Shown here: positions 1 through 36,994 of the stretch, piece by piece | How positions within the stretch are numbered: the stretch's first letter is position 1 | Layout of the letters: every line of letters begins with the position of its first letter | Virus record (IMG/VR): IMGVR_UViG_3300042554_002914 | DNA: 64,000 nucleotides | Strand: one strand, 5' to 3' | DNA from: a virus | Lineage: Duplodnaviria > Heunggongvirae > Uroviricota > Caudoviricetes | The notes under the pieces: generated by a model | Databases searched by the model: none | The model's input: only the letters and a program-made list of their open reading frames with translations | What the model was told of the DNA's origin: nothing | Position numbers and translations under genes: made by a program

Positions 1-805
1 TAAAATTTTTGAATTTTTTAGGACCTAATGAAAAACCATCCAAAAAATTCTACATTTGAATGCATATTCTGCACCCTACTATCATATATTCGCGTAAAAA
101 TTATTTATAGTACACTCTTATCTAAATACCTATATAGATAAGTTTTGTTTATCAATGAGTTTGCTGTTAGTTCTCATCAGCCATCCAACTATCATCAAGC
201 CAATTTAAATACCAAGCCATTTATTCTCCGAAAGATATAGTCAGTAGGTCATCACCCTATCCGCAATCAGCAATCAATCCCCATAGCCAAGCACCAATTA
301 TCAAGGGCACTGTCCCAGACCCAATGGGCCTCATCTTGGAGCCATCTCTCAGGAAGCCCCAAAATATCAATAGCAGCCTCTGCCAAGGCGGTAGCACAAT
401 TGTACTCCCGAGCGTTGCCATACATCCAGCTTGAGATTGAGCGTTGGTTGAAGCCGGGGGTTGAACGGGCCATGGTTGCCTCCGTTAGTGACAGGGAAAT
501 TGTAGCACGGTGTCGGCGGGTTGTCAACTTATTGGCATCAATCCCCTTCGGAAACAACCTCGAAGTCCACCTCAAAGGGGCCATCCCACTCCTGAGCCCA
601 CTGGGGGGCACACTCGCCCATGAAGCGAAGATCATCCGACTGATGAGAGAATGGTTCAGGAACCGTGTCAACTACACAGACCCAAGTTGGAAGATTCCCC
701 CGACGCACAGGATAGGCAGTGTCCCCGACCCATTCTTGAGCTAGGAAGGTGCAGCGTAGGGTGTGGGCCATTGTGAGGTCGGTGGGTTTCGGTTGGTATG
801 GACCT

Positions 806-846
806 ATTGTAGCATGGTTGCCGTGGGACCGTCAACCCCCTAGCTT
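806..846 (-). promoter_or_regulatory. type-I sigma70-like promoter repeat (minus strand reads GGGGGTTGACG-N18-TACAAT with an extended TGC)
   Basis: Plus strand reads tattgtagcatggttgccgtgggaccgtcaaccccc. It is the first copy of a family of more than 30. Confidence 0.6.
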
Positions 847-879
847 CAAGGATTGGCAAGCACGGTTTCCGGTGGGTCG

Positions 880-1053
880 TCAACCCTGCTCTTCTACACT
901 TAAAAAGTCCAGTTGATTGTCTACCCAATCCCAATAACCCAAGTTGGTTGACCCTTCATTAACTTCATCTTGCCATCCCTCTCGTGAAAATTGGGGGTGA
1001 GACCCCCACACCCCACCGTTGGCTTTTTGAAGTTGTTCGGTAGTGGTTTCCAT
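880..1053 (-). CDS. small hypothetical protein (57 aa) lying between two promoter repeats
   Basis: ATG at 1051-1053 and TGA at 880-882 read on the minus strand. It is below the 60-aa cutoff of the ORF track. A type-I promoter copy sits directly upstream at 1097-1138. The stop codon lies inside the -35 box of the next promoter. Confidence 0.25.
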   Translation of the reverse strand: METTTEQLQKANGGVWGSHPQFSREGWQDEVNEGSTNLGYWDWVDNQLDFLSVEEQG

Positions 1054-1096
1054 TGCGGTCGTTGCGTTTGGTTGTGGTTGGCTTGGTTCTGACTTA

Positions 1097-1138
1097 GTTT
1101 AGCATGGTTGCCGATGGGGAGTCAACCCCCTAGCTTCA
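1097..1138 (-). promoter_or_regulatory. type-I promoter repeat
   Basis: Plus strand reads tagcatggttgccgatggggagtcaaccccc. Confidence 0.6.
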
Positions 1139-1198
1139 AGGATTGGCAAGCATGGTTCTGGCAGCGGTATCAATGCCAGGTCATTTACCAAGTGGCAA

Positions 1199-1567
1199 TC
1201 AGCGCCGGCACAAATAACCCCCGGCCCAATCAGCCCGCTGATAGCAACTCTCAGGATCCTCCAACAAATTGTAACGAATACCCTTGGCCGGGGCCTTCCA
1301 ATTGGCTGCCTTGTAAACATTGCCGGTTACCCTATCGATGAAAGCATGAATAGAACGATTGCCGGACGTTGACATTATGATTTTCAGGTACTTGTTCCCT
1401 TCCTCTACTGTGAACACGGGGGCATAACCCTTGCCAACCCCATTAGGATTAAACCGCGCATAGTTATCAGCTAGGGCCGCGCATAGCTTGAGGGTGGCGG
1501 TGAGAACCGGGCTAGGTGCCTTAGGGGTGGTAGCTTCGGGATTCGTGGCCAGTTCGGTAGCAATCAT
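1199..1567 (-). CDS. hypothetical protein
   Basis: 122-aa minus-strand ORF. A consensus TTGACA-N18-TATAAT promoter lies just upstream at 1603-1640. Confidence 0.45.
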   Translation of the reverse strand: MIATELATNPEATTPKAPSPVLTATLKLCAALADNYARFNPNGVGKGYAPVFTVEEGNKYLKIIMSTSGNRSIHAFIDRVTGNVYKAANWKAPAKGIRYNLLEDPESCYQRADWAGGYLCRR

Positions 1568-1602
1568 GGCGGGTCGGGAACGGTGGTGTTTGGTTCCTGC
1601 CT

Positions 1603-1640
1603 ATTATACGCCTTAGGGGCTCAAACTGTCAAGGCATCGT
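1603..1640 (-). promoter_or_regulatory. consensus sigma70 promoter TTGACA-N18-TATAAT (minus strand)
   Basis: Plus strand reads attata...tgtcaa. It lies upstream of 1199..1567. Confidence 0.55.
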
Positions 1641-1934
1641 CAAGGGGCCATCAGGGAGCCAGAATGGCAAAAAAAGCAAAAAGCCAAGGGACCCCCACCG
1701 AGCCGAGGCTCAGAAACCCAGTCACTGTCAGGGATTTTCCCTTACTGTGGTTGTCTTCATTTGAGAATGCCCTAGGTGGGTGTTCCTAATTGTTGTTACC
1801 AAAGTTTCAAACCTAAAAAATTGAAAAATTTGAATTTATTATATTTTTCTAATATACCAACACACTATAATGTCATAATGCCATAACAGTATAACACTAT
1901 CGTTATATGGGCATAAAGCCATTAACCCTGGAAA

Positions 1935-2779
1935 CTATGCTCCAACCACCTGATCATCAAAATACTCATTAAGCAAGAAGTTAATTTCCCGAATAGACAA
2001 GGCCTCAATGAAAGCAACATTATTGTAGAATCTACTGAAATCTACACCCCTCAAAGCATCCAACACAGTATCATCCGCAATCTTCAAAAACATTTGAGTT
2101 GTGTTATTTTCCCTGGAGAAATCTACCTTGAGCCTTCCACAACCCCTACCAAAAATAGTCAAACTAACATCAGCATCTTGAGGCTTTACCTTCTTGATAT
2201 AGCCCCTATCTTCAACCTGAATTTTCTCCCTGACATAATCCCTCTTCTCCCAAATTTGAAACACCGTATTCAACTTTCCTTTACTTGCTTTACCACCATC
2301 GTAAACATAGTCGATGCTTAATTCTTCATCGTAAATGCAATGGAAGTAGGGGTCCAACCTGTCAATAACCGACCATTTTCTCCAACTCTTAGGTACAATA
2401 AACCCTATATAAACAGCAACCTGGGCGCACTTATTGAAAAATGGGATTGATAACTTATTGGCCCTACCAAACGGAGGATTAGTCAGAGTAATGCAACCAC
2501 TGAGACTGGAAATGTCCTCGTCTAAAAATTCCCAGTCAAACGGCAAGCGGGATGCTTAGGTTCGATGTCATAGGACACTATTTTAGTTGGGTTAATTCCA
2601 CTAGCAACTAAAGCATCAATAAATGAGCCAGTCCCACCAGCAGGTTCTAACCACATTCTATTCTTAAGTGTGTTTCCAATACCGTCGAAAATAACCCTAC
2701 CCATAACCTCAACACAATACCCCGAAGTATCCCCTGGAGTATAGTACTGTTCAGTGCCAGTTACTCTGTCCCTTTGCAT
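1935..2779 (-). CDS. N6-adenine DNA methyltransferase split into two ORFs (2522..2779 and 1935..2546); frameshift or pseudogene
   Basis: The N-terminal ORF has QYYTP and motif I (LEPAGGTGSF). The C-terminal ORF has NPPFG (motif IV). The two ORFs overlap by 25 nt in different frames at a T5/A5 run. Combined length is about 281 aa, typical for a Dam-like methyltransferase. Confidence 0.55.
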
Positions 2780-3395: not shown

Positions 3396-3480
3396 GGGGA
3401 TTGCGGTTTGTGGAATCTGACTTCCATAGTATAGCACACGGGAGACCGAACCGAACCGAACCCCCCCCCTATGCCAGTTG
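3391..3480 (-). promoter_or_regulatory. promoter plus conserved 5' leader cassette, copy 1 of 3
   Basis: The extended -10 is TGCTATACT. The leader GGAAGTCAGATTCCACAAACCGCAATCCCC-ATG is conserved. The other copies lie at 4711-4795 and 5075-5160. Confidence 0.5.
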
Positions 3481-3491
3481 CTTAATTGTCC

Positions 3492-4352
3492 TTAAATCAA
3501 AGATAAATCAATACCGTGGGTATCATACCACCACTCTTTTGTTTTATCTGGATGTTTGTCTTTAATCTTCAAGTATCGTGAAGTTATTTTACTTTGCCGG
3601 TTAACTTCGTCAGCAAAAAATTGATGCTCAATAGTTTCCCCACTTTTGTAGAGTTGGCGCAATAATTTACGCAAAACATACTCCTGTTTTTGGTTTCCAG
3701 GTTTATACCCAGACTCTATTATTTTGTAGATGGTTTCCTTTAAAGTTTCCGTTGAACTTTTTACTGGATTCCCTAAAATACTTTCAATTCTTTCCAATCC
3801 GAACCCAACATCAATAAACTGTCCAGATGTATTAACAATGTTACCAATTTCTATTCCATTCTTATAAAATTCAGTGCAGTAACCACCGAGTTCACCATCA
3901 CTCCAGACACATTCTGAATCGTATCTAATTTCCAAATCAGGGTAATCGGAATAAAAATACTTCCAAGAGTCATATTTATCTGGATGTATGGTCACATAAT
4001 CTATTTTAACTTTTAGTATATCATTAAGGAACCTCATCCAAAAATGAATGGTTTGTTGCATCGTCAATTCACCAAAGGAAAAAAGACCCAACATATTAAA
4101 ATACAATAAATGAGACCCATCACCAATTTCATCTAAATCCTGTAGGCGGATGCAAGATTGGCTATTAGCGATAGATGTATTATCTGGATTTTTAAACTTG
4201 TCCTTAAACTGTTGCATTCCAGCAGGACAAAATAGGGTAGTGTCGTCATAAGGCTTCACGCTATCGTCCACCTTAAATGAAATGTTATTACTCTCGCAAT
4301 AACTCCGGTACAGGTCTACTACTTCAGTCATTTTTAACGTATGATGAGCCAT
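3492..4352 (-). CDS. alanyl-tRNA synthetase catalytic-core homolog (aminoacylation domain only, 286 aa)
   Basis: TTLFCPAGMQQFKDKF aligns with AlaRS DPTLLFTNAGMNQFKDVF. LGLFSFGE aligns with LGNFSFGD. VGFGLERI aligns with DTGMGLERI. EYVLRKLLRQL aligns with GYVLRRIIRRA. There are no tRNA-recognition, editing or C-Ala domains. Confidence 0.75.
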   Translation of the reverse strand: MAHHTLKMTEVVDLYRSYCESNNISFKVDDSVKPYDDTTLFCPAGMQQFKDKFKNPDNTSIANSQSCIRLQDLDEIGDGSHLLYFNMLGLFSFGELTMQQTIHFWMRFLNDILKVKIDYVTIHPDKYDSWKYFYSDYPDLEIRYDSECVWSDGELGGYCTEFYKNGIEIGNIVNTSGQFIDVGFGLERIESILGNPVKSSTETLKETIYKIIESGYKPGNQKQEYVLRKLLRQLYKSGETIEHQFFADEVNRQSKITSRYLKIKDKHPDKTKEWWYDTHGIDLSLI

Positions 4353-4716: not shown

Positions 4717-4795
4717 TGGGGTTACGGTTTGGGGAATCTGACTCCCATAGTATGGCACCCTCGGCCCCGAACCGAACCTCTCCTATGCCAATTTC
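4711..4795 (-). promoter_or_regulatory. promoter plus conserved 5' leader cassette, copy 2
   Basis: The roughly 90-nt element is conserved and precedes the ATG at 4714-4716. Confidence 0.5.
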
Positions 4796-4848
4796 CCGTG
4801 TGTCACTTTTAATTTAAATCAATACAACCCGGTAAACGACCTAGGAAG

Positions 4849-5079: not shown

Positions 5080-5160
5080 TGGGGGTTGCGGTTTGTGGAA
5101 TCTGACTCCCATAGTCTAGCACACGGGAGGCCTAGCCAGACCCCACCTATGCCAATTCTC
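5075..5160 (-). promoter_or_regulatory. promoter plus conserved 5' leader cassette, copy 3
   Basis: The roughly 90-nt element is conserved and precedes the ATG at 5077-5079. Confidence 0.5.
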
Positions 5161-5225
5161 AGGGTGTCACCACCATCCTGCGTGCGATAAATAAATCAGC
5201 ACTACAATAACCACACCATCCAAAA

Positions 5226-6573: not shown

Positions 6574-6603
6574 CACTATAGCACAATGCCAAGGCATCGT
6601 CAA
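6574..6603 (-). promoter_or_regulatory. type-I promoter repeat (TTGACG-N17-TATAGT with TGn)
   Basis: Plus strand reads ctatagcacaatgccaaggcatcgtcaacccc. The spacer contains the palindrome ATGCCAAGGCAT. Confidence 0.6.
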
Positions 6604-8962: not shown

Positions 8963-9261
8963 AGGCTACTATAGCACGGTGCCAGAGCAGGGGCAATCCC
9001 TTCCCCCACCACATCTTGCAGCATGTTCCTAAGACGGCTCATTTCCTCCTTATCACCAGCCAACAGCCATCCAAAGCGAACATAATTGTTACTATATTCC
9101 TCATCCAAAATTGTAAACAGAACTTTAGCCGTCCTCTCTGGGATGACAATTGTAACACCTTTAGAAACTTCCATGAACCCTCCGGGGTTGTGATTTGAGG
9201 TTGAACAAGCACACTATAGCACAATGCTAAGGCCCTGTCAATGCGATCAAGTGTTGTTGGC

Positions 9262-9545
9262 TGTGTAGGGTTGGTGAGTATTTATACCTAGTGCTTGGCT
9301 AGGATGGGCGCCACTCGATGTCGTTGACTCCTATAAGTTGGTGAGTATTTATACCTAGTGCTGGTTAGGTTAGGGGCCGTTTTGTGTCGTTGACTTCTGG
9401 GGGGCCGTAAGTATTTATACTCACTGCCGGCTAAGTCGGAGTCCCCCCGGTGTCGTTGGCTCCACACAAGTCAGTAAGTATTTATACTCACTGTTTAAAA
9501 ACAAAAAACCCATAATTTTCGGAGGGGGCGTTAGCCCCCGACTGG
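9262..9545 (-). repeat. tandem array of four roughly 68-bp units, each with a GTATTTATAC (TATAAATA on minus) box and a GTCGTTGAC box, ending in a GC hairpin
   Basis: The units start near 9268, 9336, 9407 and 9474. The hairpin ggggcgttagccccc lies at 9524-9539. Confidence 0.6.
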
Positions 9546-11544: not shown

Positions 11545-11611
11545 GGTTGGTCGGTGGCGGGTAGTGGGGGGGGGGTTGTGGTAGGGGGGAACTGGTTTGC
11601 CGTGGCAACGA

Positions 11612-11697
11612 ACCTACTGTAGCATGGTGCCGGGGCCGTGTCAACCCCTAGCTTCAACCTAACAGTAAGCATGGGGCCGTGGCATCGTCAACCCCCC
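11612..11697 (-). promoter_or_regulatory. tandem pair of type-I promoter repeats
   Basis: Two copies of agcatgg(t/g)gcc..gtcaacccc lie 47 bp apart, upstream of 11164..11544. Confidence 0.55.
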
Positions 11698-11702
11698 TAG
11701 GT

Positions 11703-11722
11703 CAGATAAGTATAAATATCTA
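11703..11722. promoter_or_regulatory. palindromic TAAGTATAAATA box (T4 late-promoter-like core)
   Basis: Plus strand reads agataagtataaatatctac. Further copies lie at 12308-12330, 13853-13880, 16747-16768, 17107-17128 and in the 9262-9545 array. Confidence 0.45.
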
Positions 11723-11752
11723 CCCACCCAAACAGTATAAGCACTAAGTCCC

Positions 11753-12280
11753 TCAGTCTACCCTAACAACAATAACCGCACTCTCCAGCAAGGTACCATC
11801 TGGCAACCTGCAAACTACAGAGCTAGTATAAGCCTTGCGCTTGCGATTACCAATCGAAACCACACCTTCCAGCCGATACCCCGTAGGAAAACAACCCTGA
11901 AGTTGCCTCTCCCCGTACAACGTATAAGACTCAATGAGTCCACCCTCGCTATGGCAAATCGAAACCGCCGGAGCTTTGAATCCGATAATAGTATCATGAA
12001 CTCCAACCTTATGACAAATACCCCGACAATCTTCTAGGTTAGGGGAAATATATTGTTGCCATTGCCCTACAGTTAGAGCCAAGGCGTTTTCTTTCCAGTG
12101 GGCTGTAATCGGCGGTTTTTGCTTTCGTGACTTTGGTGGTTTTGAAGTTTTTGTGGTCTTGGGGGTGCGAAGGCTAAATGTTTGCATAGGTGCAGTTTGG
12201 TTGCTGTTTGGTTGTGTACCTACCCTAGCATGATGCCGTGGCAGTGTCAACCCCCATAGCTTCAACCAAACAGCAAGCAT
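11753..12280 (-). CDS. hypothetical protein
   Basis: 175-aa ORF lying downstream of tandem type-I promoters. Confidence 0.45.
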   Translation of the reverse strand: MLAVWLKLWGLTLPRHHARVGTQPNSNQTAPMQTFSLRTPKTTKTSKPPKSRKQKPPITAHWKENALALTVGQWQQYISPNLEDCRGICHKVGVHDTIIGFKAPAVSICHSEGGLIESYTLYGERQLQGCFPTGYRLEGVVSIGNRKRKAYTSSVVCRLPDGTLLESAVIVVRVD

Positions 12281-12306
12281 GGTGCCGGAGCAGTGTCAAC
12301 CCCCCA
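12221..12306 (-). promoter_or_regulatory. tandem pair of type-I promoter repeats
   Basis: ctagcatgatgccgtggcagtgtcaaccccc is followed by aagcatggtgccggagcagtgtcaaccccc. Confidence 0.55.
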
Positions 12307-12334
12307 GGTTAAGTAAGTATTTATACTTAGGCCC

Positions 12335-13018
12335 CTAATCAACCCCCAAAATACCCAAATTCCGATTATCCTGTGGTGTTAACCCCACGGACTTCCTGAC
12401 CCTTAGGTGAACAGTCTCAAACCCCCTCTTGCTTTCTACAATACGACGCACTTTGTCAGACGGGTCATTATAGAGAACTTCTAAAATTTTATCCGAAACA
12501 TCCTTACGCCTAGCAATCTCAATACGAACTCTCTCTTCACTATCTTTATACAACGCTTCAATGAGCCCCAAAGGGAGATTCGGCTTCTTAGCAAGATGAA
12601 ACCTAACCATTTCATAGCCATACAGAGCCAACTTCCATAAAATGAAATCAGGGAGATCTGACTTCAGGGCAAGTTCCATTTGAATATGATTGTTGTGCCC
12701 TAATTTATCAAAAACAGCAAAATACCATTTCTTAGCGTCTTCCCTTTTAAGAATGGCCATTGCGAACTTGAATGCCTTTTTATGGTTAAATGCCTGCTTA
12801 ATTACATCCTCCGATAGTTCCCCCGACGATTTAATAGCCGAAAGAATACCACCCTCAGAAAGTACATTAGGGTCATAGGCACATTTCTGATAACTAAACG
12901 TAACCAATTCCTTAGCACTCAACCCATCCAAAACGCTAATTAACTTATCAGCCTCTTCCTCACTCATTGGGTCGGAATACTCCGAACCTTCATACCAGAT
13001 GCGAAAAAGTTTGTCCAT
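12335..13018 (-). CDS. hypothetical protein
   Basis: 227-aa ORF with a triple tandem promoter upstream. Confidence 0.45.
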   Translation of the reverse strand: MDKLFRIWYEGSEYSDPMSEEEADKLISVLDGLSAKELVTFSYQKCAYDPNVLSEGGILSAIKSSGELSEDVIKQAFNHKKAFKFAMAILKREDAKKWYFAVFDKLGHNNHIQMELALKSDLPDFILWKLALYGYEMVRFHLAKKPNLPLGLIEALYKDSEERVRIEIARRKDVSDKILEVLYNDPSDKVRRIVESKRGFETVHLRVRKSVGLTPQDNRNLGILGVD

Positions 13019-13051
13019 GTTGGTGACTGTTTGGTGACTGTTTGGTTATAG

Positions 13052-13186
13052 ACCTATCCTAGCATGGGGCCATGGTATCGTCAACCCTGTAGCTTTAACC
13101 TAACAGCAAGCATGGTGCCGGAGCAACGTCAACTCCCCTTAGCTTCAACCAAACGGCAAGCACGATGCCGGGGCAGTGTCAACCCC
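13052..13186 (-). promoter_or_regulatory. triple tandem type-I promoter repeats
   Basis: Three copies lie at roughly 50-bp spacing, upstream of 12335..13018. Confidence 0.55.
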
Positions 13187-13413
13187 CTTATTTTGCCCTC
13201 CAGTTTTTACAATTCCAGTCCCCTGGGGTTTTGATGAATGTACCATTTGTGGCAATCCCACTTTTAACAATTAGCTTCCCATTCGGTTTACCTTTAGGTT
13301 GATTAGGAATAGGAATCACAATGGAACTGGCCCTAATGCCAGAACAATTACCAAGATTAAATCCCTGATAACTCCAATACCTGCAGGTTTTACACTTTTT
13401 CATTTTTCCGCTC

Positions 13414-13800
13414 TCATAGATCCAAAAGTTCTCTAATCTGTTCGGCAGTGAGCCTTGAAAGGATAAGCTCCTTTTCTTCTTCACTGAGGTTGTCGATTGT
13501 GACTTCTTTTTTCTTCCTGACAATCTCAAGACAAGTCAAATTCTTAGGATTATCGCCATAGAGAAAGGTATTATCATAATCTTCATCCAAATATTCTTCA
13601 CCCTCAATACAGTCTTGAACTTCAATACTTGGGTTCTTATCATCATTAACAATGGCCTCACGATTTTTGGATGCGACAGAATGGGCATCTTCAAAATCGT
13701 CTGCCATGACCATTACATCATAGGTAATCTTTACCGAATAAAGTTCTTTCATTGGTTGTTGGTTGCTGTTTGGTTGCTGACCGTTTGGTTGTGGACCCAT
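13414..13800 (-). CDS. hypothetical acidic protein
   Basis: 128-aa ORF with a promoter at 13793-13830. Confidence 0.45.
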   Translation of the reverse strand: MGPQPNGQQPNSNQQPMKELYSVKITYDVMVMADDFEDAHSVASKNREAIVNDDKNPSIEVQDCIEGEEYLDEDYDNTFLYGDNPKNLTCLEIVRKKKEVTIDNLSEEEKELILSRLTAEQIRELLDL

Positions 13801-13832
13801 CTTAGCAAGGTTGCCGGTAGGCTGTCAACCCG
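13795..13832 (-). promoter_or_regulatory. type-I promoter repeat
   Basis: Plus strand reads cttagcaaggttgccggtaggctgtcaaccc. Confidence 0.5.
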
Positions 13833-13873
13833 CCATAATTGCTAACTACTGCGGGTCAAATAAGTATAAATAC

Positions 13874-15328
13874 TTACCCCGAAACCCTGCCATCACTAAT
13901 CATTATGCCTTCACTTACCAATAATTCCCGAATCCTATCTGCCTCCTCATAATCACGATTAGCCCTTGCTATGTTGCGCATTTCAATTAGTGCCTGAATT
14001 TCATCGCTTTTTGGTTTTTGAGGCTCGGAAACCTCATGAACCAGTCCCAAAATCCCAGCTAATTCACATAAGAGCCCCCAACGATTTAGAATTTCCCTAT
14101 TTTCATCGCCTGCTGATACAATGGGGCGAGCCAAATAGAATAATTCGCTGATGGCCACAGACGTATTAAGATCATCATTGAGTGCCGAAATGAAGCGGTC
14201 TCGGCTATTTTTTAAGTCTGTAGTTAAAATCAAGGGTTCATTCGTTTGCTGACTAATCCCGTGCCGACTAATTCCATTCCGGCTAGCCCCATGCCAACTA
14301 TCACCATGCCAACCAAACCCCAATGCAGCATTTAATACTTTCCAACCATTGATCGCGGGTATCATTGCCTCTGAATTAAAATCTATCGGCTTCCTGTAAT
14401 GGGCTTGTAATACGAATAACCTAATGGTCATGGGACTAATGCCGGATCCAATTAGGTCTCTAATGGTTGTAAAATTCCCTAGGGATTTAGCCATTTTTTC
14501 TTCACCAACCGTGACAAACCCGTTATGAAGCCAATACCTGGCTAGTTCAGCCCCATTGGCAGCCTCAGATTGGGCGATCTCGTTTTCGTGGTGGGGAAAG
14601 ATCAGATCGGCTCCACCCAAATGAATGTCAATTGTCTCACCTAGTTCTTCCCTAATCATAGCCGAACATTCGATATGCCATCCGGGTCGTCCCCACCCCC
14701 AGGGTGACGGAAAGCCGGGTTCACTCGCCATGGCACTCTTCCAAAGAGCAAAATCAAAAGGGTGGCCCTTCTTTGAGTCGCTATTAACTTGTTGTTGGCC
14801 AAGGTTGCGACCACTTAGTTTCCCGTACCCCTTAAACCCTGTAACCGAGAAGTACATATCCCCGCCCATAGAATAAGCAAATCCCTTATCGGCAAGGTCT
14901 TGAATCATGGCGCGGATTGCATCGAGACTACGGGTAACCCTTGGCATTTTGTCGGCAGGCAGGATGTTCAATGCGCCCATATCCTCCTCAAAGGCCTTAA
15001 TATTACGCTCACTGACGGCCCCGATTGTTGTTCCTTCAGAGTTGGCTTTGGCTAGAATTTTATCATCGATATCCGTATAATTCTGAACAAACGTAACCTC
15101 ATACCCATGCCACATAAAATTACGCCTTAAGACATCCCACACGATATAACTACGGGCGTGCCCTAAGTGGCATAAATCGTAAACGGTAACACCGCAGCAG
15201 TAAATCGAGACCTTGCCTGGAACCAGCGGAGTAAACTTCTCCTTGGCTTTAGTAAGGGTGTTGGTTAGGGTAATGTCGTTAATCATTGTATTTTGTAAGG
15301 TCAATATCCCCATGTCAATCCTTGTCAA
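13874..15328 (-). CDS. cysS: cysteinyl-tRNA synthetase
   Basis: The class-I HIGH motif (CHLGHARSY) and the KMSKS motif (KMAKSLGN) are both present. The protein is 484 aa. Confidence 0.9.
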
Positions 15329-15620: not shown

Positions 15621-15804
15621 GGGGGAACCGGTAGTTGGTTTTGTGTGGTTGCTGTTTGGTTACGGGTTCATTGTAGACCCAATGCGAGCCCAATGTGGGC
15701 TCAATGTAGACTCAATGTAGCATAGTACCGGAGCCCAGCCCCTACAATGGTTGCTCTGTGTAGTTGTGGTTACGACCCCACCATAGCATGATTCCGAAGC
15801 AAAA

Positions 15805-16317
15805 TCAATCCCTGCCCTTAGCAAGGTACATCCGGTCAAAAATCATAAACGGCAATTCATTATTTGCGGTACCTAAATTACCTTCCACAAACTCAATAAT
15901 TAGATCCTGCATTACTCTGGCGTACTCCGGGTGAGACTCCACAAACTTGATTGCCCCCGGTGTTAATGCCGATGCAATCGTGGATAGGGCTTCAGGTTCC
16001 AGAGAATTAGCTTTTTCCGGTGTTTGTTGTGTTCCCTGTTCGGGGTTGGCCGGGTCTGGATCTGGGCCAAGAATTTCAATTTCCCTAATATTGTAACCAG
16101 TAGTTGATAGTTGGATTTTCACAATATCATTGCCATGGGGGGTCAAGCCTTCGCAGTAACAGCCATCTATTTTATAGGATAAGCAGCTGCAGATAGTGTA
16201 AGGATAGAATTCGGAGTGATTGGCTGATACTAGGGCATTAAGAATAATTCGTCCGTCACGAAGCTCAACATCAACTTCTTTGCCGACGAATTGTGAGAGG
16301 TTTAGTTTCAGTACCAT
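15805..16317 (-). CDS. hypothetical protein (N-terminal paralog of 5859..6539)
   Basis: NLSQFVGKEVDVELRDG is shared with the paralog. A T10 tract lies immediately upstream of the ATG. Confidence 0.45.
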   Translation of the reverse strand: MVLKLNLSQFVGKEVDVELRDGRIILNALVSANHSEFYPYTICSCLSYKIDGCYCEGLTPHGNDIVKIQLSTTGYNIREIEILGPDPDPANPEQGTQQTPEKANSLEPEALSTIASALTPGAIKFVESHPEYARVMQDLIIEFVEGNLGTANNELPFMIFDRMYLAKGRD

Positions 16318-17123
16318 TGTAAAAAAAAAAGGGGGAGGGTGATCTGAATGGTTGCTATTTAGCTTTAATCGGGGGTACGGTTACTAGGGCTTATCAGTCG
16401 CCCATAACCTCAGCTTACCCACAGTATAACGCTCCCGGCCATGCTTAGCGATGTCCCTACCCTCCAGCAGCTTCCACATCCTACGCTTGGCGCAATCCAA
16501 ACTCCTACATGCCCACGCATGGCAAGCAAGCCCGTACTGAGCCCGCAGGGAGTCGGTTATGGGGTTAAGGGGATGGTCGGATGGTGTGGGCATTGGGTTG
16601 GTTGGTTGGTTGGGGGTTGGTTGGTGAGGCCATTATAGCACGGATGCGCCAAGGGTATGCCCAGGGTATGCCACAGGTGCAGGGTGCTAATACCCGGTAA
16701 GATACTACCCTGTGGGGCATCGTGTTGCTAACACCCCCCCCCGAAGTCAATAAGTATAAATACCTACTTAACCCTGGGGCCAATAACACCCTTCCGCACC
16801 AATCCTAGAGTCAATACCCCGAGGCTAATAACACCCTGCCGCACCAATCCTGGAGTCAATACCCCGAAGTCAATACCCCGAAGTCAACTACCACGCAGCG
16901 CCAACCTACCACTACTGCCACCAACCTGAGTATTTAATCCCACTCCATTGGCCGCCTGAGCACCCATTCGAGTTCCACGGAGATCATTTTGATTGTCGGG
17001 GGGGACAGGGATGGCCGGGGCACCAAAGCAGCGCCCTCACCCCGTAATTATACCACGCTGGGGGACCTTGGCAAGATGCTATCGGGGATCGCTGACTGTT
17101 ACGGGTGAGATAGGTATTTATAC

Positions 17124-17426
17124 TCAGTGCCGTTTCTTTGAGTTTCTGCCACTGTACCCACTGACTGGGATTGGGTTACCGTTTAGCTCTCTTTCGTCTG
17201 CCAAATGCCATGCGATGGCCTCTGCTATTGCGGCTAATTTTTTACGTGCTGGTTTAGTGTAGAGGTATAATCCTTCCATTTCTTTGTTATTTGGGTCTCC
17301 TTCAATTTCAGATGTCAATTGGACAAGTTCCTGCTTTGAGTATTTTTTGTAGTATGTGTTTGAAGTTGGCATTATGTTAAGGGGAAAAGAAAGGGCCATC
17401 GCCATGCAGCAACAACCCCACAACAA
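17124..17426 (-). CDS. hypothetical protein
   Basis: 100-aa minus-strand ORF. Confidence 0.35.
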   Translation of the reverse strand: MLWGCCCMAMALSFPLNIMPTSNTYYKKYSKQELVQLTSEIEGDPNNKEMEGLYLYTKPARKKLAAIAEAIAWHLADERELNGNPIPVSGYSGRNSKKRH

Positions 17427-18665: not shown

Positions 18666-18902
18666 GTGACAGGGGGGTAGATGGTTTGGTGACGGTGGGC
18701 TTAAGGGGGGGGGTCCAAAACCCGCTACTCACAAGGTAATTATAGGGGACAGGGGGCCAAATGTCAACCCCCATGCCCTTGGTTTCGGTGCTGGCATTGC
18801 TGGTATTGCTTGCATTGCTGGTATTCGATCAATTCTTAGCCAATTCTTAGCCAACTCGTGGTCAACTATCAATCGGCCATTAGAATTAACGCATGGCCAC
18901 AA

Positions 18903-19226: not shown

Positions 19227-19607
19227 GTCCGGTGCCGCGTTCCCCGGCGTGATCGGCAGTTGGGTCGAACCGGCGCTTTGCCGATGGGTGCATTATAGGG
19301 TGGATTCCCCGAGGTGTCAACCCCCCTGCCCCAGGCATCGATGTCAACTCCCTGGGCCCCATTCGAGTCACTAGCTCAATTCCTTGAACTCCCCTAACCC
19401 ATCAAAGATGCAAATCTCTAGCGAACTACATAAAAGTAAAATTGCAGCAAAAAGGAACTCACCATGCGCAGCAAGCAGGGCTACCCCAAATCCATGCCCA
19501 TAGGACATCATTAAAAAGCCACAGATACATGAGGTAAAATTCTGCGCCATTTGTAGCGTACCAAGCTAATGCTCTGGTGGTTTTTTGATTCATTGGGGGG
19601 ATAGGGT

Positions 19608-22756: not shown

Positions 22757-22800
22757 GAACCCATCTTAGCACAGTGCCGGGGTCAGTGTCAACCCCTGTG
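22757..22800 (-). promoter_or_regulatory. type-I promoter repeat
   Basis: Plus strand reads cttagcacagtgccggggtcagtgtcaacccc. Confidence 0.5.
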
Positions 22801-23148
22801 GCTACGGCACCCATCACTTCACCCCCAACTTAACCAGTAGGCAAGTACGACGAGCCTTAGCAGCCCTGGCCGCCTGTGGCTTACGTTTGCCCTTGGATTT
22901 ACGGCCCTTCTCACGGGGCCCTAGTTTGCTGTGGTTGCTGGTCATGGCATTAGCGGTCCGGTTCTTCCTTATTATAGGGGGTAGTTCCGGCTCTGTCAAC
23001 CCCCTTGCCTTGACTTTACTTTGACTTTAACTTTGTGGCCACAACCCCCTTGCCTGACACCGTGGCAACAAACCCCTTGCCTTGCCTTTGCCTCTACAGC
23101 GCTTAGCGTTGACCCCCCGTAGCTACTACCGGGAAACCAAACCCCTAT

Positions 23149-25829: not shown

Positions 25830-26351
25830 TTAGCGACTAGCAGTAACTTTAGAGCGACTGAGGATCGTAGCAACATAAATGCGCCCCTTTTTAGCCATGG
25901 CAGATACTGCTTTGTTACGATTAAATACCGGAACTTTCTTAACGGTGGGCTCCATTTTAGCCTTGGCAGCATCTTCTAGGGCCTTCAGTTTGGCTTTGGC
26001 AACTTCCACCGTTTGGGTAGCCTTTTGGATCTTAGTATTGCCAGAAAAATCATATTCCTTATCCTCCCGCAGAATGAAATTACCGTAAATCGTCTCAATT
26101 TTCTTAAGATCGGCAGCCTCCAGCTTCTCAGCAATGGAAGCCTTAACAGCACTCCTGCGCTCAGTCAGGGCAGCAATACGCTCGTCCAGCGAAGACAAGC
26201 GACGGACAAGGTTCTCGGTGGTTTGGGCTTGGGTTTGGGTTTGGATTGTAGTTTGGGCGATAGCCATGGCTTCGGTGTGTGTGTCAACTGAACCCAGTAT
26301 AAGGGGTGCCTGCCCCCTTGTCAACCCCCCTAACCAAAACGCAACCATCAC
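25830..26351 (-). CDS. hypothetical coiled-coil protein
   Basis: 173-aa minus-strand ORF. Confidence 0.45.
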   Translation of the reverse strand: MMVAFWLGGLTRGQAPLILGSVDTHTEAMAIAQTTIQTQTQAQTTENLVRRLSSLDERIAALTERRSAVKASIAEKLEAADLKKIETIYGNFILREDKEYDFSGNTKIQKATQTVEVAKAKLKALEDAAKAKMEPTVKKVPVFNRNKAVSAMAKKGRIYVATILSRSKVTASR

Positions 26352-27084: not shown

Positions 27085-27103
27085 TCAACAAATGTAGAGA
27101 CAA

Positions 27104-27826
27104 TCAACTAAAGATATCTTCTGTTTCCTTTTTCTTAATCTGCCAGTAAGTGTCCCGGGTAGCATTATACGCGGTTAAAATACCTGAGAATACAGCCCCG
27201 GTATCAATCCCGATACGGTCATTAGTTATGTCCGGATCTTTACCTACGATAGTATGACCATGGACAACTTTCTTTATTTTGGCGGTCCATTCATGCAGTT
27301 CAGGTCCCAGGCTAAGGAATGGTTCACGTATCCATAGTAGGTTGTCGGCCTTTTTAGTTTTAATTTGTTCAAAGGGATCATGCCCAGGAAACACTCCAGC
27401 ATGGATAAACATTGTGTCCCCCACAGTCATGTAGATAGGTAGTTGTTTGATCCATTCATAGTGATTGGCTTTCATGTCTTCAAACTGTTTAAGATTTCCG
27501 CCATTTCTCACCCAAATCGCCAAAGAATTGTATCCCCACATGGTTTCGGATCCTGCAACAACATCGACAAACATACGTTCATGGTTACCCATCAGCACAT
27601 TGAAACTTTCTAGTCCTGCACTTTCGGGATCGTCCATTAGTTCTTTGACTTTGTTAAGGACATCCATATCTTCGCCACCCCGGTCAATCAAGTCCCCCAG
27701 CAGAATCACTCGCGCCCCAGTTCCATTAAGCCACTTTAATGCGGCAGTTAAAACATCATAACGAGCGTGGATGTCACCAATGGCTACTACATCACCGACA
27801 TTTACTTTTTTCCTCAGCCTGGTCAT
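27104..27826 (-). CDS. calcineurin-like metallophosphoesterase (lambda-phosphatase / Pnkp-phosphatase type)
   Basis: GDIHA, GDLIDRG and GNHE motifs are all present. Confidence 0.75.
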   Translation of the reverse strand: MTRLRKKVNVGDVVAIGDIHARYDVLTAALKWLNGTGARVILLGDLIDRGGEDMDVLNKVKELMDDPESAGLESFNVLMGNHERMFVDVVAGSETMWGYNSLAIWVRNGGNLKQFEDMKANHYEWIKQLPIYMTVGDTMFIHAGVFPGHDPFEQIKTKKADNLLWIREPFLSLGPELHEWTAKIKKVVHGHTIVGKDPDITNDRIGIDTGAVFSGILTAYNATRDTYWQIKKKETEDIFS

Positions 27827-27969
27827 TTTACTTCGGGGTTTGTACTTTGGGGGTTTTACTTTGGGGTTCTTGCTTTGGGGTTAATATCCCGGTGTTTATC
27901 CTGTGGGTCATCCTGTGGATATCCTATGGGTAATCATGCGGGGTCACCATACGGGACCACACTACGGGT

Positions 27970-28464: not shown

Positions 28465-28809
28465 AAGGGGGTTTAGAAGGGGTCTAAGGGCCCCGGGGGG
28501 GTGTCAAAACCACATCAATTACACTTAGTATAGCATACCGCCAACCAAAGTCAATGCCCGAAAGTCAAAAACCTATACCTGTCTAACCAATCCTTAAGCA
28601 AATCATCATCTTCGACTACTTGGGGGTTTTGATTTACAAAATCTTCAACTACCCACGCAACTTCTTTGAATTGCAATTCGTTACAGTCCGGTTTGAATGG
28701 GACTTTAAGGTTTGGATACTTGGGTAGTATTGCGGCTAGTTGTGACTTTAGACTTAATGGTACGGCCATCTTGTAAACCTCAAGGATTCAACAAACTTAC
28801 CCATTACCC

Positions 28810-29112
28810 TCAAAGGTCAGTCTCTAGGGCAATTTCCCCCAGGTTAAACTTTTCCATAATATCCAAATAACCAGCATTCAAAATACCTTGAATAAGGTCA
28901 CCGTCGTCTAGTTCCTTCAGATTTGCAGTCAAGGCTTCGCAATAAACACGAATAAGTTCCTTAACTGGTGCATTTTCTGCAACACGGGACACCACAATGT
29001 CGATCAGTTCGTTGCGATTTTCAATAGGTTCAGGGGCCATTTTTTGTCTGTTTGGTTTGTTTAGTCTGTTCGGTCTGTTTAGTCCGTTCGGTCCATAAAT
29101 GTAATTATACAA
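28810..29112 (-). CDS. hypothetical protein
   Basis: 100-aa minus-strand ORF. Confidence 0.3.
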   Translation of the reverse strand: MYNYIYGPNGLNRPNRLNKPNRQKMAPEPIENRNELIDIVVSRVAENAPVKELIRVYCEALTANLKELDDGDLIQGILNAGYLDIMEKFNLGEIALETDL

Positions 29113-30140: not shown

Positions 30141-30544
30141 GGTTGGAGGGGGTGGGGTAGCCTACCCTGAATTTTACCCCCCCGTTCATTAACCTTTCAA
30201 ATTAGATTTGGCAAGGTCTAATGCAATCCAGTTTTTCAGGGTTTGAAGACTGCGAATTTTTGCCTGAAGGTGTGATAATCCCTCTTCGGAAAAAGACTCA
30301 GGACATAACTCTCGTTCAGCAATTAGTTCCCCTGCATACATTTCAAGGGCTTCGATTGCGAGTTCTTTATCTTGTTTGGAAATTAGTGACATGGCCTATG
30401 AGTTGAAACCTTTGGGTGCGTTAATTAGCTTGGTGTTTGCCATTTTTTTTATAGTTGTTAGCGTAGGTTGTTAGCGTAGATTGCTAATGCAGGTTGTTAA
30501 TGCAATGAGTACAAACCCTGGCCATTATTACCCATTGTCAAATA

Positions 30545-31119: not shown

Positions 31120-31280
31120 TTGATATTTGGTTGATGGCTGCGGGGGGCCACAGGGGGGCCAAAACGGGTTCCCAACACTATTGTAGCATACACTGGGGCA
31201 AAGTCAATGGGTCTGCCGGGAACCTGCTAGGCACTACCGGAAACTGCCCGACACTGCTGAATGATGCCGAATGCAACCAA

Positions 31281-34015: not shown

Positions 34016-34084
34016 TGATAGTATAGCACAAGGTTAAAACGAAGTCAAGGGGCCAACCCGAAAGTCAACCCCCCCCCAAGGGAT

Positions 34085-34915
34085 TCAGACAGCCGCCATC
34101 TCCAGAGCCACTTGCATCGCCCGCTGATTGATAGATACACCTTGGCCAAAATTGGAATAGTTAAAGCAACCGTCGTTAGTCTTACGGACTTCGTGACTGG
34201 AAAATTCAGTGACCGCATTGAGCGCATCGTATAGGGTGTGCCCCTCGTTGCCTTTACCATTATAGAAAAGGTGGTTAAGCCTATCAATGTTGCGAATCTT
34301 ATCGCCCTCCTTCTTATTGTAGGTAGCTTCCAGGAAGCGGGTGAATTGTGCCCCGGTGCAAGTGGCATTGGCAATGGTTTCCACATTTTGGGCATAACGT
34401 GCCATGTCTTCATTGACGAGATCCATTACCATACTAGACCCAATAACAAGCTCGTTTACACCTCTATTATGTCGGAATTTTTGACCGATCTCCCTGTAGG
34501 CCATGGTGAACGTATTGGCGCAGATAACGCGAACTGCTGATGAACCGATGGCCACCGATGCGTTGGCTGTGTGGCCGTTTAGTAGTGTAATAAAGGCATT
34601 GTAGTCTTCGCCAATAACTTGGAAACCTTGGCTGATGCGAGCCTGGATAAATACCTTGGCTCCATTTTGGAGGTGCCCCATGTTTTCCACTGTAAGAATA
34701 CCTTCTTCCACCAAAGGGCTAACTTTACCTAGAAGGACTTCGTTTTGAACAGATTCGTAGCCCGTGGAAACATACCCGAGGCGATAATCATTATCATCAC
34801 GGTGAACAGCAACTGTGGAAGGATCAACTTCCCACTCCCCCTTGAAGTTCATGGATGCGACGGCCCGATTAGAAACGGTCCAGTCTAGGTTGTTGGTGAT
34901 GGCGAAAGCAGTCAT
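34085..34915 (-). CDS. phage/plasmid DUF932-like protein
   Basis: 276-aa ORF. The N-terminal NLDWTVS resembles the DUF932 GLDWxV start. Confidence 0.45.
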   Translation of the reverse strand: MTAFAITNNLDWTVSNRAVASMNFKGEWEVDPSTVAVHRDDNDYRLGYVSTGYESVQNEVLLGKVSPLVEEGILTVENMGHLQNGAKVFIQARISQGFQVIGEDYNAFITLLNGHTANASVAIGSSAVRVICANTFTMAYREIGQKFRHNRGVNELVIGSSMVMDLVNEDMARYAQNVETIANATCTGAQFTRFLEATYNKKEGDKIRNIDRLNHLFYNGKGNEGHTLYDALNAVTEFSSHEVRKTNDGCFNYSNFGQGVSINQRAMQVALEMAAV

Positions 34916-35117
34916 GGTTGGTTGCGGATCGTTGGTTGCGGTTGGGTGGTTACTGGGTTATTCTAGCAGGGTTGGTCCTGGTTGTCAATGCCTGCCGGGG
35001 GTGAAGGCTGACTGGGAACCAATTTCAAGTTAGTTTAGCGCGGTATGGGGTAATTGTCAATGCTTGCCAGGTGCCATGACTCAGAAGTCGAGAGGTGCGA
35101 AGTTAGCGCAAAGTCAA

Positions 35118-35552
35118 TCAATAGTCATAACCATAGTCAGAGGAAAACTCATACTCGTCGCCATCTTTCCCGTCGATCTCATCCTTAAAGCCATACTTGA
35201 TTGCCGTTGCCTTGAAGAGAGGCAAACCATATTGAGCGTAATTATCGTCAGAAAAGTCCTCAAGACCATCCTCAAGAACCCAATTCCACATCTTGACGAC
35301 ATTGAACATTAACCCTGAGCTAATCCCACGCTGATTCAGTGCCTTCTCAAAGCCAAAGGCAACATCTTTTTCAAGCTGTGCAAGAACATTTTTCCGTGTG
35401 TACGGAATAACTTCATGAGTTGCGCCCTCTTGAAGGGTTAATCCAAAGTCCTTAAGCTGCTCTTGTGGGATAAACTGGGCAAGTCTATAAATATCGCGTC
35501 CGTCGAGGGTTCCCGATTTGTAAAGCTTTTGGACCTGTTTAAGAGTTTTCAT
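35118..35552 (-). CDS. hypothetical protein with an acidic/aromatic C-terminal tail (start MKTLKQ)
   Basis: The long ORF 35118..35960 overlaps the phosphoesterase gene. The internal ATG at 35550-35552 gives a coherent 145-aa product. Confidence 0.4.
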   Translation of the reverse strand: MKTLKQVQKLYKSGTLDGRDIYRLAQFIPQEQLKDFGLTLQEGATHEVIPYTRKNVLAQLEKDVAFGFEKALNQRGISSGLMFNVVKMWNWVLEDGLEDFSDDNYAQYGLPLFKATAIKYGFKDEIDGKDGDEYEFSSDYGYDY

Positions 35553-35691
35553 GGTTGAAGAAATTGGTTGTAGGGCCATTATAGCATGGGGCCGTAGGGA
35601 TGGGACCAGGGGTATGGGGTTTGGGTAGCGCCTAACGGCGCTCAAACCCGGTCGGGGGCTAGCGCCCCCTCCCGAAAATTCCGGGTCTTTG

Positions 35692-36462
35692 TCAAGGCTG
35701 GAGCCTGCCATCGTGGCCAAAATACCGGAGCACCTTGGTTTCCACATCGTACAGACAAAGTTTGGTATCTTCAGGGTTGATTTCGCTATGGGAAGACCCA
35801 CCCATTTGACCGTCGAGGACGATGTTTTTCTCGCTGATGTAAACATTATGATAATGTCCAGCGACTCGGACCCATTCCTTATCATCATCTTCCAACCACC
35901 ATGGGAGGCGATCAGATGTAACTTTCCCATCTTCCAAGGTAACCTTATAGAAAGGCCCATAGATCATGGTTTCAAGTTCCCTGCGGGTAATAGCATTGGA
36001 CATTACTTGGTGGGTGCCATTATATTTCGGGATGGGCAATCTGCGGGGGAAACAAGCGTGAGCGCACCGGTATTCAGTACCTTCCGCACCCCTAAATACA
36101 AAGCCATAAGGCATCGAATCGAGCCAAGGCAATACCTCGGCGACCAAATCAATGCCACCTTTTTCAAAGTCATCTATGGTAGTTCGCAAGTCTTGGAAAA
36201 CCTTGACTTTATTTCCCTTGAGATAGCGAATCAGTTTATTTTGGTGATTGCTTTGCAGGATGATAGTGCCAGGGATTTCCTTTTGAATTTGCCTCACTGC
36301 ATGATAAACCCCGACAGAATCTGAGGTTTCGCACCTTGAATCAAAAAGGTCCCCCAGTAGAATTGGGGTTAGCCTTTCCGACAAGCAGAGCTTTAGGGCC
36401 GCTTCCAGGGGGAGCAACTGGGAATGGATGTCACCAATGATGGCGTAACGAGTGTGTGTCAT
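35692..36462 (-). CDS. calcineurin-like metallophosphoesterase (second copy, divergent)
   Basis: GDIHS and GDLFD are present, and SNHQ occupies the GNHE position. Confidence 0.7.
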   Translation of the reverse strand: MTHTRYAIIGDIHSQLLPLEAALKLCLSERLTPILLGDLFDSRCETSDSVGVYHAVRQIQKEIPGTIILQSNHQNKLIRYLKGNKVKVFQDLRTTIDDFEKGGIDLVAEVLPWLDSMPYGFVFRGAEGTEYRCAHACFPRRLPIPKYNGTHQVMSNAITRRELETMIYGPFYKVTLEDGKVTSDRLPWWLEDDDKEWVRVAGHYHNVYISEKNIVLDGQMGGSSHSEINPEDTKLCLYDVETKVLRYFGHDGRLQP

Positions 36463-36558
36463 GGACCCATTGTAGCATGTTTGATGGGGGTTGCCCCTCA
36501 GGGTATGACTGCTGGGGTCATCACTGAGGGCATTATATCCCGTGATTTAATAGTCCCA

Positions 36559-36807
36559 TTACTCATGGTTTAAAAAGTCTAGTAAAAGTTGGATGATGTT
36601 TCTTTTATACTTACGTTTTTTGCTCTGTGGAGTAAACCTACCAAATACCTCAAGTTCTTCGATAGATGCTCCCTGAAGCCAGTATTGAAAGGAGTCTTCG
36701 TCCATGAGGCAAATATCGTTGTAGGGGCCAAATGACGGATCTAATGGTCTTAGGGAACTGCCACCGTAAGGCGCATAGTGGCCATTCGAATTACGATAGA
36801 GGACCAT
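36559..36807 (-). CDS. hypothetical protein
   Basis: 82-aa ORF. A homopolymer A/T tract lies immediately upstream of the ATG and a C11 run lies further upstream. Confidence 0.35.
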   Translation of the reverse strand: MVLYRNSNGHYAPYGGSSLRPLDPSFGPYNDICLMDEDSFQYWLQGASIEELEVFGRFTPQSKKRKYKRNIIQLLLDFLNHE

Positions 36808-36994
36808 AAAAAAATTTTTTTTTTAGGAAAGCAATCTTCTACAGCGAGCCACCCCCCCCCCATGAGTCGTGCTGACAGCGCTTTAAGGTTGTGATAGGCA
36901 TTTTGCTGTGGGGGTTGTTTGGAACTGTTATCAGTGCCACTCTAGCATGGTTGCTGCTAGGTGTCAACTCTTAACCAAGTTATAAATGTAGTGA

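Follow-up and report, generated by a model that had tools for sequence, protein, structure and literature searches.

Repeated sigma70-type elements as probable early promoters in an uncultured large phage

Why would one virus carry so many near-copies of a sequence that looks like an ordinary promoter? The question is raised by a 64,000-nt window of the IMG/VR virus record IMGVR_UViG_3300042554_002914 (Caudoviricetes), and "the window" below means this whole stretch. The initial annotation described more than 30 strongly conserved copies of a sigma70-like promoter element between 800 and 36970. It took the extra conservation as a sign of a dedicated regulator or sigma factor, or of a second role at the RNA level. 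We argue that the elements are probably strong early promoters for the host polymerase with its primary sigma factor, and that selection on polymerase contacts together with recombination among copies keeps them alike. Such promoters would serve the host RNA polymerase with a sigma70/SigA-type sigma factor, and would drive a large set of small genes, most of them orphans, in an early or accessory region. A near-consensus -35, a spacing of 16-18 bp, an extended -10 of the form YRTGC-TAnnnT and often a GGG discriminator would make for efficient capture of polymerase right after infection.

The motif was examined with an iteratively trained position weight matrix (PWM) of two blocks, G-rich/TTGACA and TGCTAnnnT, with 15-19 bp between the hexamers. 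Chance expectations come from first-order Markov simulations. There are 40 sites of at least 12 bits on the minus strand and none on the plus strand, where 3.45 are expected. With a threshold of at least 16 bits the counts are 34 and 0 (0.55 expected). The simpler pattern TTGAC-N14-20-TGNTANNNT gives 18 matches on the minus strand only, against 1.04 expected. An independent consensus scan agrees, as its TG-extended hits in 1-40 kb are exclusively on the minus strand; promoter-like hits are not enriched in 44-64 kb by the same scan. A codon-usage gene caller run on the 64-kb window places all credible genes on the minus strand and finds only low-scoring open reading frames (ORFs) on the plus strand. 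The element is on the coding strand, just as had been claimed.

Position tells the same story. The caller predicts 115 ORFs that take up 78% of the window, so about 22% is counted as non-coding; it is crude and some of its starts are miscalled. Set against that 22%, 32 of the 40 sites are intergenic, and most of the exceptions lie at gene ends or at miscalled starts. The element is not equally frequent inside coding regions. Other details of the initial annotation do not fit. The element was said to occupy nearly every intergenic gap, but it is found in 23 of the 50 gaps of at least 40 nt that the crude caller leaves in 1-37 kb. It was placed 25-35 nt before the start codon, but the ATG lies a median of 44 nt from the end of the -10 (interquartile range 35-73), and in only 8 of 33 sites does the distance fall in the proposed range. 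The formula that was given, read literally as TTGACR-N16-19-TGCTAYART, has no matches at all because its 17/18 is the spacing from hexamer to hexamer.

The features of a sigma70-type promoter are all there: a TTGACA-like -35, a TAnnnT -10, 16-18 bp between them, and often a TGn. PWM column frequencies are 0.76-0.94 for TTGAC, 0.71-0.78 for TG and 0.94-0.96 for TA...T. Hexamer spacing is mostly 16-18 bp while the spacer sequence is variable, which fits this type of promoter. Co-orientation with the genes, intergenic position, the bipartite motif and the conservation of the hexamers and TGn all speak for the promoter reading, and here we agree with the initial annotation.

Extended homology is another matter. 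A hidden Markov model (HMM) of the core family was made from ten copies, and a full copy was defined as an nhmmer match with E<=2e-9. The model finds 10 full copies (835, 1125, 6603, 9241, 11644, 12250, 13084, 13828, 22792, 62203). It also picks up 5 units of the tandem arrays that are partial, and roughly 7 weak relatives. Only these share homology beyond the motif, so the claim of more than 30 strongly conserved copies is an overstatement. Overall, about 35-40 near-consensus promoter sites precede the small genes, and 10-16 of them belong to this one promoter-plus-leader cassette. A core unit reads, in order, GGTTGAAGCTA, GGGGG, TTGAC(A/G), spacer, (A/G)TGC-TAnnnT, (A/G)GGTYC, a CA-rich leader and the ATG. 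Its spacer is NN-GCC-NN-GGCA-NNN or NNCC-NNN-CGGCAACC-N. The remaining sites have generic sigma70 features only and fall into local sub-types: B, E, an extended -10 type at 3.4-5.2 kb that has no -35, and a type at 47-58 kb with hairpin, T-run and promoter (Table 1). Positions outside the polymerase contacts are more alike among neighbouring sites (Mantel p=0.0045), which points to local spread.

Comparison between strains separates what is constrained from what is only similar. The window was aligned to related strains and identity was pooled by position category. Pooled identity is 0.921 for the -35 hexamer, 0.964 for TGn and 0.900 for the -10 hexamer. First, second and third codon positions stand at 0.917, 0.932 and 0.815, and the upstream flank, the leader, and the discriminator with the start region at 0.823, 0.835 and 0.850. 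The spacer overall, at 0.829, changes at a near-neutral rate when set against third codon positions. In orthologous pairs the hexamers and their spacing are retained and the spacer bases vary. Constrained hexamers and TGn, a kept spacing and a drifting spacer make up the classic promoter signature. The conserved spacer that had been reported is real within the core family, where GCC-NN-GGCA recurs, including the palindromic ATGCCTTGGCAT, but between strains the spacer as a whole drifts.

What is known from E. coli and B. subtilis suggests that a good part of the "extra" conservation lies on established polymerase contacts. We take YRTG before the -10 to be an extended -10 or "-16 region", and GGG after the -10 is presumably a discriminator in contact with sigma region 1.2. 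Such contacts do not explain the G-run, the spacer motif or the upstream GGTTGAAGCTA. The likeness beyond polymerase contacts (the GCC..GGCA spacer, GGTTGAAGCTA-GGGGG and the CA-rich leader) is confined to about 10 full copies, and it would come from descent and recombination. The same recombination would alter tandem copy number and move gene cassettes in and out. We consider that the core copies are best explained as being kept alike by recombination or gene conversion among promoter-plus-leader cassettes, in addition to common descent.

Exchange between copies can be seen at several sites. One close relative is the 279-kb IMG/VR contig 3300044846_005229, which has 85-93% nucleotide identity to the window. 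At the 13828 site the window and one metagenome strain have an 18-bp sub-type. The 279-kb contig shares the flanks on either side without a difference, and between them it has a 17-bp sub-type and a leader that are nearly identical to its own neighbouring paralogue. A gene of 227 amino acids (aa; 12335-13018) is flanked by two arrays in the window, in L033 (a Lake Mendota-series contig 100% identical to 11583-14705) and in L037. It is missing from the 279-kb contig, whose single three-unit chimeric array resembles the upstream array of the window at its beginning and the downstream array at its end. Relatives at 75-88% protein identity have neither the 39921 promoter nor the 66-aa ORF that goes with it. 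The promoter-cassette region is also where indels between strains cluster. A weaker sign is that 12 of 67 synteny breakpoints fall in elements that make up 4% of the region (p=1e-5).

The distribution of the family agrees with spread inside one lineage. A search of 185,579 bacterial and archaeal species genomes with the core pattern gives 0 matches, and in IMG/VR and metagenomes the pattern is confined to this phage lineage, except for one unrelated match (L036). This implies a lineage-specific family and not a host element. It must be noted that the core-family HMM has no match in the relatives L001-L018, since those loci come from the 28-49 kb part, which has few core copies. Relatives further away (38-55% and about 75% protein identity) lack the family.

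Tandem duplication or triplication at about 50 bp had been reported at three places, and there are arrays at all three (Table 1). The array at 13056..13197 is called by TRF (Tandem Repeats Finder) at 13079-13190 with period 50, 2.3 copies and 80% match, and two-unit arrangements similar to the arrays are also present at 806-896 and 1096-1173. What does not stand is that every unit is a promoter. The upstream units keep the G-run, the -35 and the spacer, and have TGCTTGCYGTTWGGTTRAAGCTA (TGCTTGC or TGCTTAC) where the -10 is expected, with scores below 12 bits. Since TGCTTGC stands where TGCTAnnnT should be, they do not count as duplicates of a working promoter, and the best explanation from their sequence is that they are partial copies without a usable -10. 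The same -10-less variant is present in all upstream units, so the U-plus-P dimer seems to have spread as a unit rather than by fresh duplication in each array. Array copy number ranges from one to three among strains. The ORFs 668-934 and 1099-1320 were rightly called spurious, since both translate to ..PCLPILEARGLT.. across the repeat.

Table 1. Elements of the core family, other promoter sub-types and further features of the window (P, promoter copy; U, upstream tandem unit; where given, E and bits are match scores)
Feature	Position	Strand	Details
Core P copy	806..835	minus	GGGGG-TTGACG, 18 bp, TGCTACAAT; E=1.3e-16, 27.9 bits; 34 nt before ATG of 77-aa ORF
U copy	859..896	minus	-35 and spacer present, TGCTTGCCAAT replaces -10; E=0.005
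Core P copy	1096..1125	minus	TTGACT, 18, TGCTAAACT; E=1e-13
Degenerate U unit	~1126-1173	minus	TTGATA..TGCTTGCCAAT; upstream of 1096..1125 P copy
Core P copy	6575..6603	minus	palindromic spacer ATGCCTTGGCAT; E=6.9e-15, 28.6 bits
Diverged core relative	8968..8996	minus	TTGCCC, 17, TGCTATAGT; 25.3 bits; overlaps 3' end of upstream ORF
Core P copy without G-run	9213..9241	minus	four 67-bp repeats with 16-bp palindrome upstream
Two-unit array	11616..11707	minus	U (TTGACG..TGCTTACTGT), then P (TTGACA, 17, TGCTACAGT); 29.6 bits; second TGCCACGGCA dyad in leader, at 11598-11607
Two-unit array	12222..12316	minus	U, then P; E=3.9e-17; gene most likely starts at 12187, not 12280
Three-unit array	13056..13197	minus	U, U, P; -35 starts 13182, 13132, 13084 (50 and 48 nt apart)
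Core P copy	13799..13828	minus	18-bp spacing; 17-bp paralogue type instead in 279-kb relative
Diverged core relative	15780..15808	minus	TTGATT, 17, TGCTATGGT; E=2.2e-6
Sub-type B	18739..18767	minus	GGGGG-TTGACA, 17, CCCTATAAT; upstream of DnaN-like gene
Further sub-type B copies	19292-19320, 22971-22999, 26296-26324		sub-type range 18.7-26.3 kb
Core P copy	22763..22792	minus	18-bp spacing; E=3.2e-14, 28.7 bits
Sub-type E	28527..28554	minus	GCA-TTGACT-TT.., 16-17, TGCTATACT
Further sub-type E copies	31180-31207, 34020-34048, 34960-34988, 35032-35060, 39894-39921		sub-type range 28-40 kb
Last site of reported range	36939..36967	minus	TTGACA, 17, TGCTAGAGT; 25.4 bits; just downstream of tRNA cluster
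Core P copy, far outside reported range	62175..62203	minus	GGCTAGAGT -10 region; E=6.7e-14
16-bp palindrome sites	9275-9290, 9342-9357, 9408-9423, 9475-9490, 11707-11722, 12314-12329, 13861-13876, 16751-16766, 17111-17126		
89-nt repeats (three)	3397-3485, 4718-4806, 5082-5170	minus	ATTGGCATAGG, GGTTCGGTTCGG, TGTGCTATACT, without -35 hexamer
Separate repeat family	46936-47002, 55216-55282, 56887-56953, 58215-58281	minus	GC-rich hairpin, T-run, TATAAT-like -10
Tandem repeats of 45 and 14 nt	16771-16892	minus	TTGACT-TCGGGGTA units; in 530-nt gap bounded by two 16-bp palindrome copies
286-aa protein	3492-4352	minus	matches N-terminal part of alanyl-tRNA synthetase only
Cysteinyl-tRNA synthetase, full-length	13874-15328	minus	
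tRNA matches (three), 114-130 nt	36996-37109, 37217-37346, 37593-37710	minus	Rfam tRNA 38-47 bits; no ARAGORN call
CAAAGTTGATACAGCTATTATTTGTATCC (dyad GATACA..TGTATC)	~39535-39565	minus	upstream of 500-aa DUF2828/DUF7788 gene
Glutamine riboswitch	54023-54100	minus	Rfam RF01739, 46.4 bits vs gathering score 35; precedes 70-aa ORF at 53784-53996

Several points weigh against host-polymerase promoters shaped by recombination as the full answer. Start sites, timing and strength are inferred from the sequence, and we assume that the elements fit the host sigma factor. The G-run directly before the -35 has an ortholog identity of 0.862. It is the opposite of an A/T-rich UP element and is unexplained. 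The excess of breakpoints in the elements is not significant over intergenic DNA alone (10/47 vs 13.6%, p=0.10). The identical -10-less sequence in all upstream units suggests more than random decay. Close copy pairs have substitutions at 1/42 of the positions in the GCC/GGCA arms and at 7/42 of the other spacer positions, a comparison of six pairs only, from different strains (p about 0.06 by our own estimate). The 10-bp palindrome TGCCNNGGCA occurs 5 times, only inside these units, and one of the five is in a leader, with a spacer copy about 30 bp upstream of it. With arms that are rarely substituted and TGCCNNGGCA confined to the units, some function of the spacer dyad is possible, which is a hint and not a result.

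These last points are what an operator would explain. The promoters may also hold a binding site for a phage-encoded regulator (the TGCC-NN-GGCA dyad, the G-run or the 16-bp palindrome) that would switch the whole set together, and the -10-less tandem units would then be putative extra binding sites. The upstream units do retain the -35, the spacer and the dyad after losing the -10. A separate symmetric palindrome of 16 bp is present in 9 copies, at arrays or close to other promoters, and is conserved in relatives. We nevertheless regard an operator in the promoters as unlikely. The spacer as a whole changes at the neutral rate between strains. Many copies have an imperfect dyad or none, among them GGGCCTTAGC, ACCATGGCC and the 18-bp sub-type CCACGGCAACC, and other promoter sub-types in the same region are wholly without it. 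A distance of 6 bp between half-sites is also unusually short for a protein that binds DNA as a dimer. A Pfam scan of the ten small proteins beside the palindromes and arrays finds no DNA-binding domain or regulator among them. One can imagine a phage protein at the dyad and/or TAAGTATAAATACTTA that would shut off or boost the early gene block, with the -10-less units as docking sites for the regulator or the polymerase. Such a coordinated switch would be a new mechanism of early-to-middle switching in an uncultured giant phage of cyanobacteria, but we find it quite improbable.

If there is an operator, the 16-bp palindrome is a better candidate for it than the spacer dyad. It is near-perfect (TRAGTATWWATACTYA; TAAGTATAAATACTTA at 12314-12329), and its 9 sites give 19 strand matches against 1.07 expected. 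At two arrays, including the copy at 12314..12329, it lies 14 nt upstream of the -35 of a U copy, and elsewhere the palindrome is near promoters. Four copies (9275-9490) are inside 67-bp tandem repeats that have a second box, AGYCAACRACA. The centre is AAA or TTT and its orientation flips (6 vs 3), so the palindrome resembles a symmetric protein-binding site; its positions are conserved in relatives. It contains TATAAATA, the late-promoter sequence of T4. We infer a link to the promoters, and at the level of a candidate the palindrome may be an operator.

The next alternative is that the elements are promoters for a phage-encoded sigma factor or a phage RNA polymerase instead of the host primary sigma. 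The family is lineage-specific, with no match among the species genomes, and there are conserved positions outside the hexamers, both of which speak for such an enzyme. We argue that it is highly improbable all the same. The hexamers are the textbook consensus for a primary sigma factor, with 16-18 bp spacing and TGn. Single-subunit phage polymerases have contiguous promoters of about 20 nt and fixed length. Unless the virion injects a polymerase, the host enzyme has to read the first genes. Of the 20 window proteins scanned, none is a sigma factor or a polymerase, and the window covers 64 of about 280 kb. The extra conservation had been the reason to propose a dedicated regulator or sigma factor, which these analyses do not support; the known contacts, the near-neutral spacer and recombination would account for much of the likeness.

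An RNA-level element in read-through transcripts, whether a processing site, an attenuator or a terminator like the stem-loop of promoter-early stem-loop (PeSL) cassettes, also has very little chance of being correct. It is true that the G-run can pair with the spacer C-run in some copies and that one copy has a better fold than its shuffled versions (z=-2.43). A 5-bp hairpin (CGGCA..TGCYG) followed by TTTGGTT can form in four of the six upstream units, though it is not strong enough to count, and two are flagged as weak terminator-like. However, arrays and single copies compared with shuffled sequence give z = +1.05, -0.29, -0.33, -0.60, -2.43 and +0.18, and the arrays themselves range from +1.05 to -0.60. 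Mean z is -0.05 for the -44 to -13 segment of 34 sites, and the lengths of the G-run and C-run are uncorrelated (rho 0.03). Terminator-like sites are not enriched in 1-40 kb (26 vs 21.6 expected in both halves), the elements match zero Rfam families at gathering score, and an RNA hairpin made of a 3-4 bp stem and a 2-nt loop is not viable. The folding z-scores and the absent correlation of G-run and C-run lead us to reject a structural or stem-loop role, and the processing role that had been proposed is not supported.

Three further readings were rejected: a sigma54-like one of GGCA..TGCT by eye (the GG-to-GC spacing is 8 nt, not 12), a MotA box in the TGCTT of the upstream units (there is no TAnnnT 11-13 nt downstream) and an ECF-type (extracytoplasmic function) promoter (the spacing is 22 nt).

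Host-polymerase early promoters are easiest to judge beside known systems. T4 early promoters are "uber" promoters of UP, -35, TGn and -10 with additional consensus regions (PMC2988021). The elements here are like them (T5 and T7 A1-A3 were also compared) in having many coding-strand copies before small genes, a close -35/TGn/-10 and extra consensus positions beyond the needs of the host enzyme. They are unlike them in having a G-run instead of an A/T-rich UP element, a GC-rich GCC..GGCA spacer, -10-less upstream units and CA-rich leaders without Shine-Dalgarno motifs. The host is also different, being probably a cyanobacterium, and activity and timing are presumed in our case. Strong early promoters in tandem are also found in T7. 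The early promoters of the cyanophage Ma-LMM01 are SigA-like (PMC5780444).

The PeSL cassettes of the T4-type phages RB49, phi1, PST and nt-1 consist of repeated sigma70-like early promoters and stem-loops upstream of orphan genes, and recombination between the copies shuffles genes (PMC2839356, PMC4122927). The elements in the window resemble them: they too are sigma70-like promoters of about 100 bp that recur in a variable region, ahead of orphan genes. In both, gene cassettes are lost, gained or exchanged when copies recombine, and both have G-rich and C-rich tracts around the promoter. The downstream genes are orphans here too: none of ten downstream proteins matches at the Pfam curated threshold, and two have weak sub-threshold matches. 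Unlike in PeSL, folding and terminator scans detect no stable stem-loop or terminator in the core family, only the weak 5-bp hairpins of some upstream units. There is also no A/T-rich upstream region. Positions -40 to -36 are G-rich (G 0.45-0.73), with GGTTGAAGCTA further upstream. The recombination and promoter features are shared while the stem-loop and the A/T-rich region are not, so we call the family PeSL-like in behaviour but not PeSL. The stoperators of mycobacteriophages are 13-14 bp repressor sites of temperate phages and not promoters. They too are short conserved sites that recur in many intergenic regions. However, the conserved core here is a bipartite promoter, only the 16-bp palindrome is operator-like, and no repressor was found among the ten proteins scanned.

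Two other repeat families in the window also look promoter-like. The family at 47-58 kb, and not the reported elements, has the full terminator-plus-promoter layout of PeSL. Its T-run doubles as a TTGTTT -35, two of its copies are flagged as terminator-like, and the relatives at 75% identity use this type. The 89-nt repeats at 3.4-5.2 kb resemble extended -10 promoters and might need an activator.

Taken as promoters for the host enzyme, the elements are a familiar large-phage design, repeated strong early promoters, in an unstudied lineage, and not a new regulatory system. Current understanding is not challenged by any of this. If the explanation is right it provides a promoter map for an uncultured lineage of ~280-kb freshwater phages from Lake Mendota-type metagenomes. 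It would also extend promoter cassettes as recombination modules beyond T4-type coliphages and vibriophages. Near-consensus SigA-type promoters with CA-rich leaders that lack Shine-Dalgarno sequences could be strong expression parts for cyanobacteria. Annotation of the window should drop the two spurious ORFs and shift several start codons downstream of the promoters.

The source is probably an uncultured freshwater phage of about 280 kb with a cyanobacterium as host. The nearest cultured-phage proteins, a glutamine riboswitch and the near absence of Shine-Dalgarno motifs all point to such a host. The nearest cultured-phage protein match, at 58% identity, is to the Synechococcus phages B3 and B23 (B3 belongs to the Kyanoviridae). 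For the clamp, the closest matches among cultured phages are in those of Synechococcus, Nodularia and Microcystis. The protein that is 58% identical to a phage B3 protein has a similar tRNA cluster downstream, and two other proteins match unrelated phages best. Close relatives are uncultured contigs only. An 11-kb query has zero megablast matches among GenBank phages, and no T4 core genes are within the 64-kb window. We found nothing in the literature on phages B3 and B23 or on the promoter motif.

Gene products encoded in the window include a cysteinyl-tRNA synthetase, a DnaN-type clamp, a nicotinamide phosphoribosyltransferase, two RNA ligases and a DUF2828/DUF7788 protein, alongside many small orphan ORFs and tRNA genes. 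Translation-related genes such as tRNA synthetases are typical of very large phages. A Shine-Dalgarno-like motif precedes 8 of 98 genes, which is below the rate in random windows (13%). The 25 nt before most start codons are CA-rich (A 35%, C 32%, G 13%), and these leaders are often short tandem repeats of 7-18 nt that are AACCAAAC-like (13020-13046, 27826-27882, 29042-29093, 30454-30499, 49446-49484, 61876-61911). The glutamine riboswitch listed in Table 1 fits a cyanobacterial host.

Two more observations concern the region around 37-40 kb. CAAAGTTGATACAGCTATTATTTGTATCC and the leader that follows it are kept even in relatives at 75% protein identity, whereas the surrounding DNA is not. The three tRNA matches at 36996-37710 appear to hold insertions of 40-60 nt, and in phage B3 a 110-nt "pseudo-tRNA" follows the DUF2828 gene at the corresponding position.

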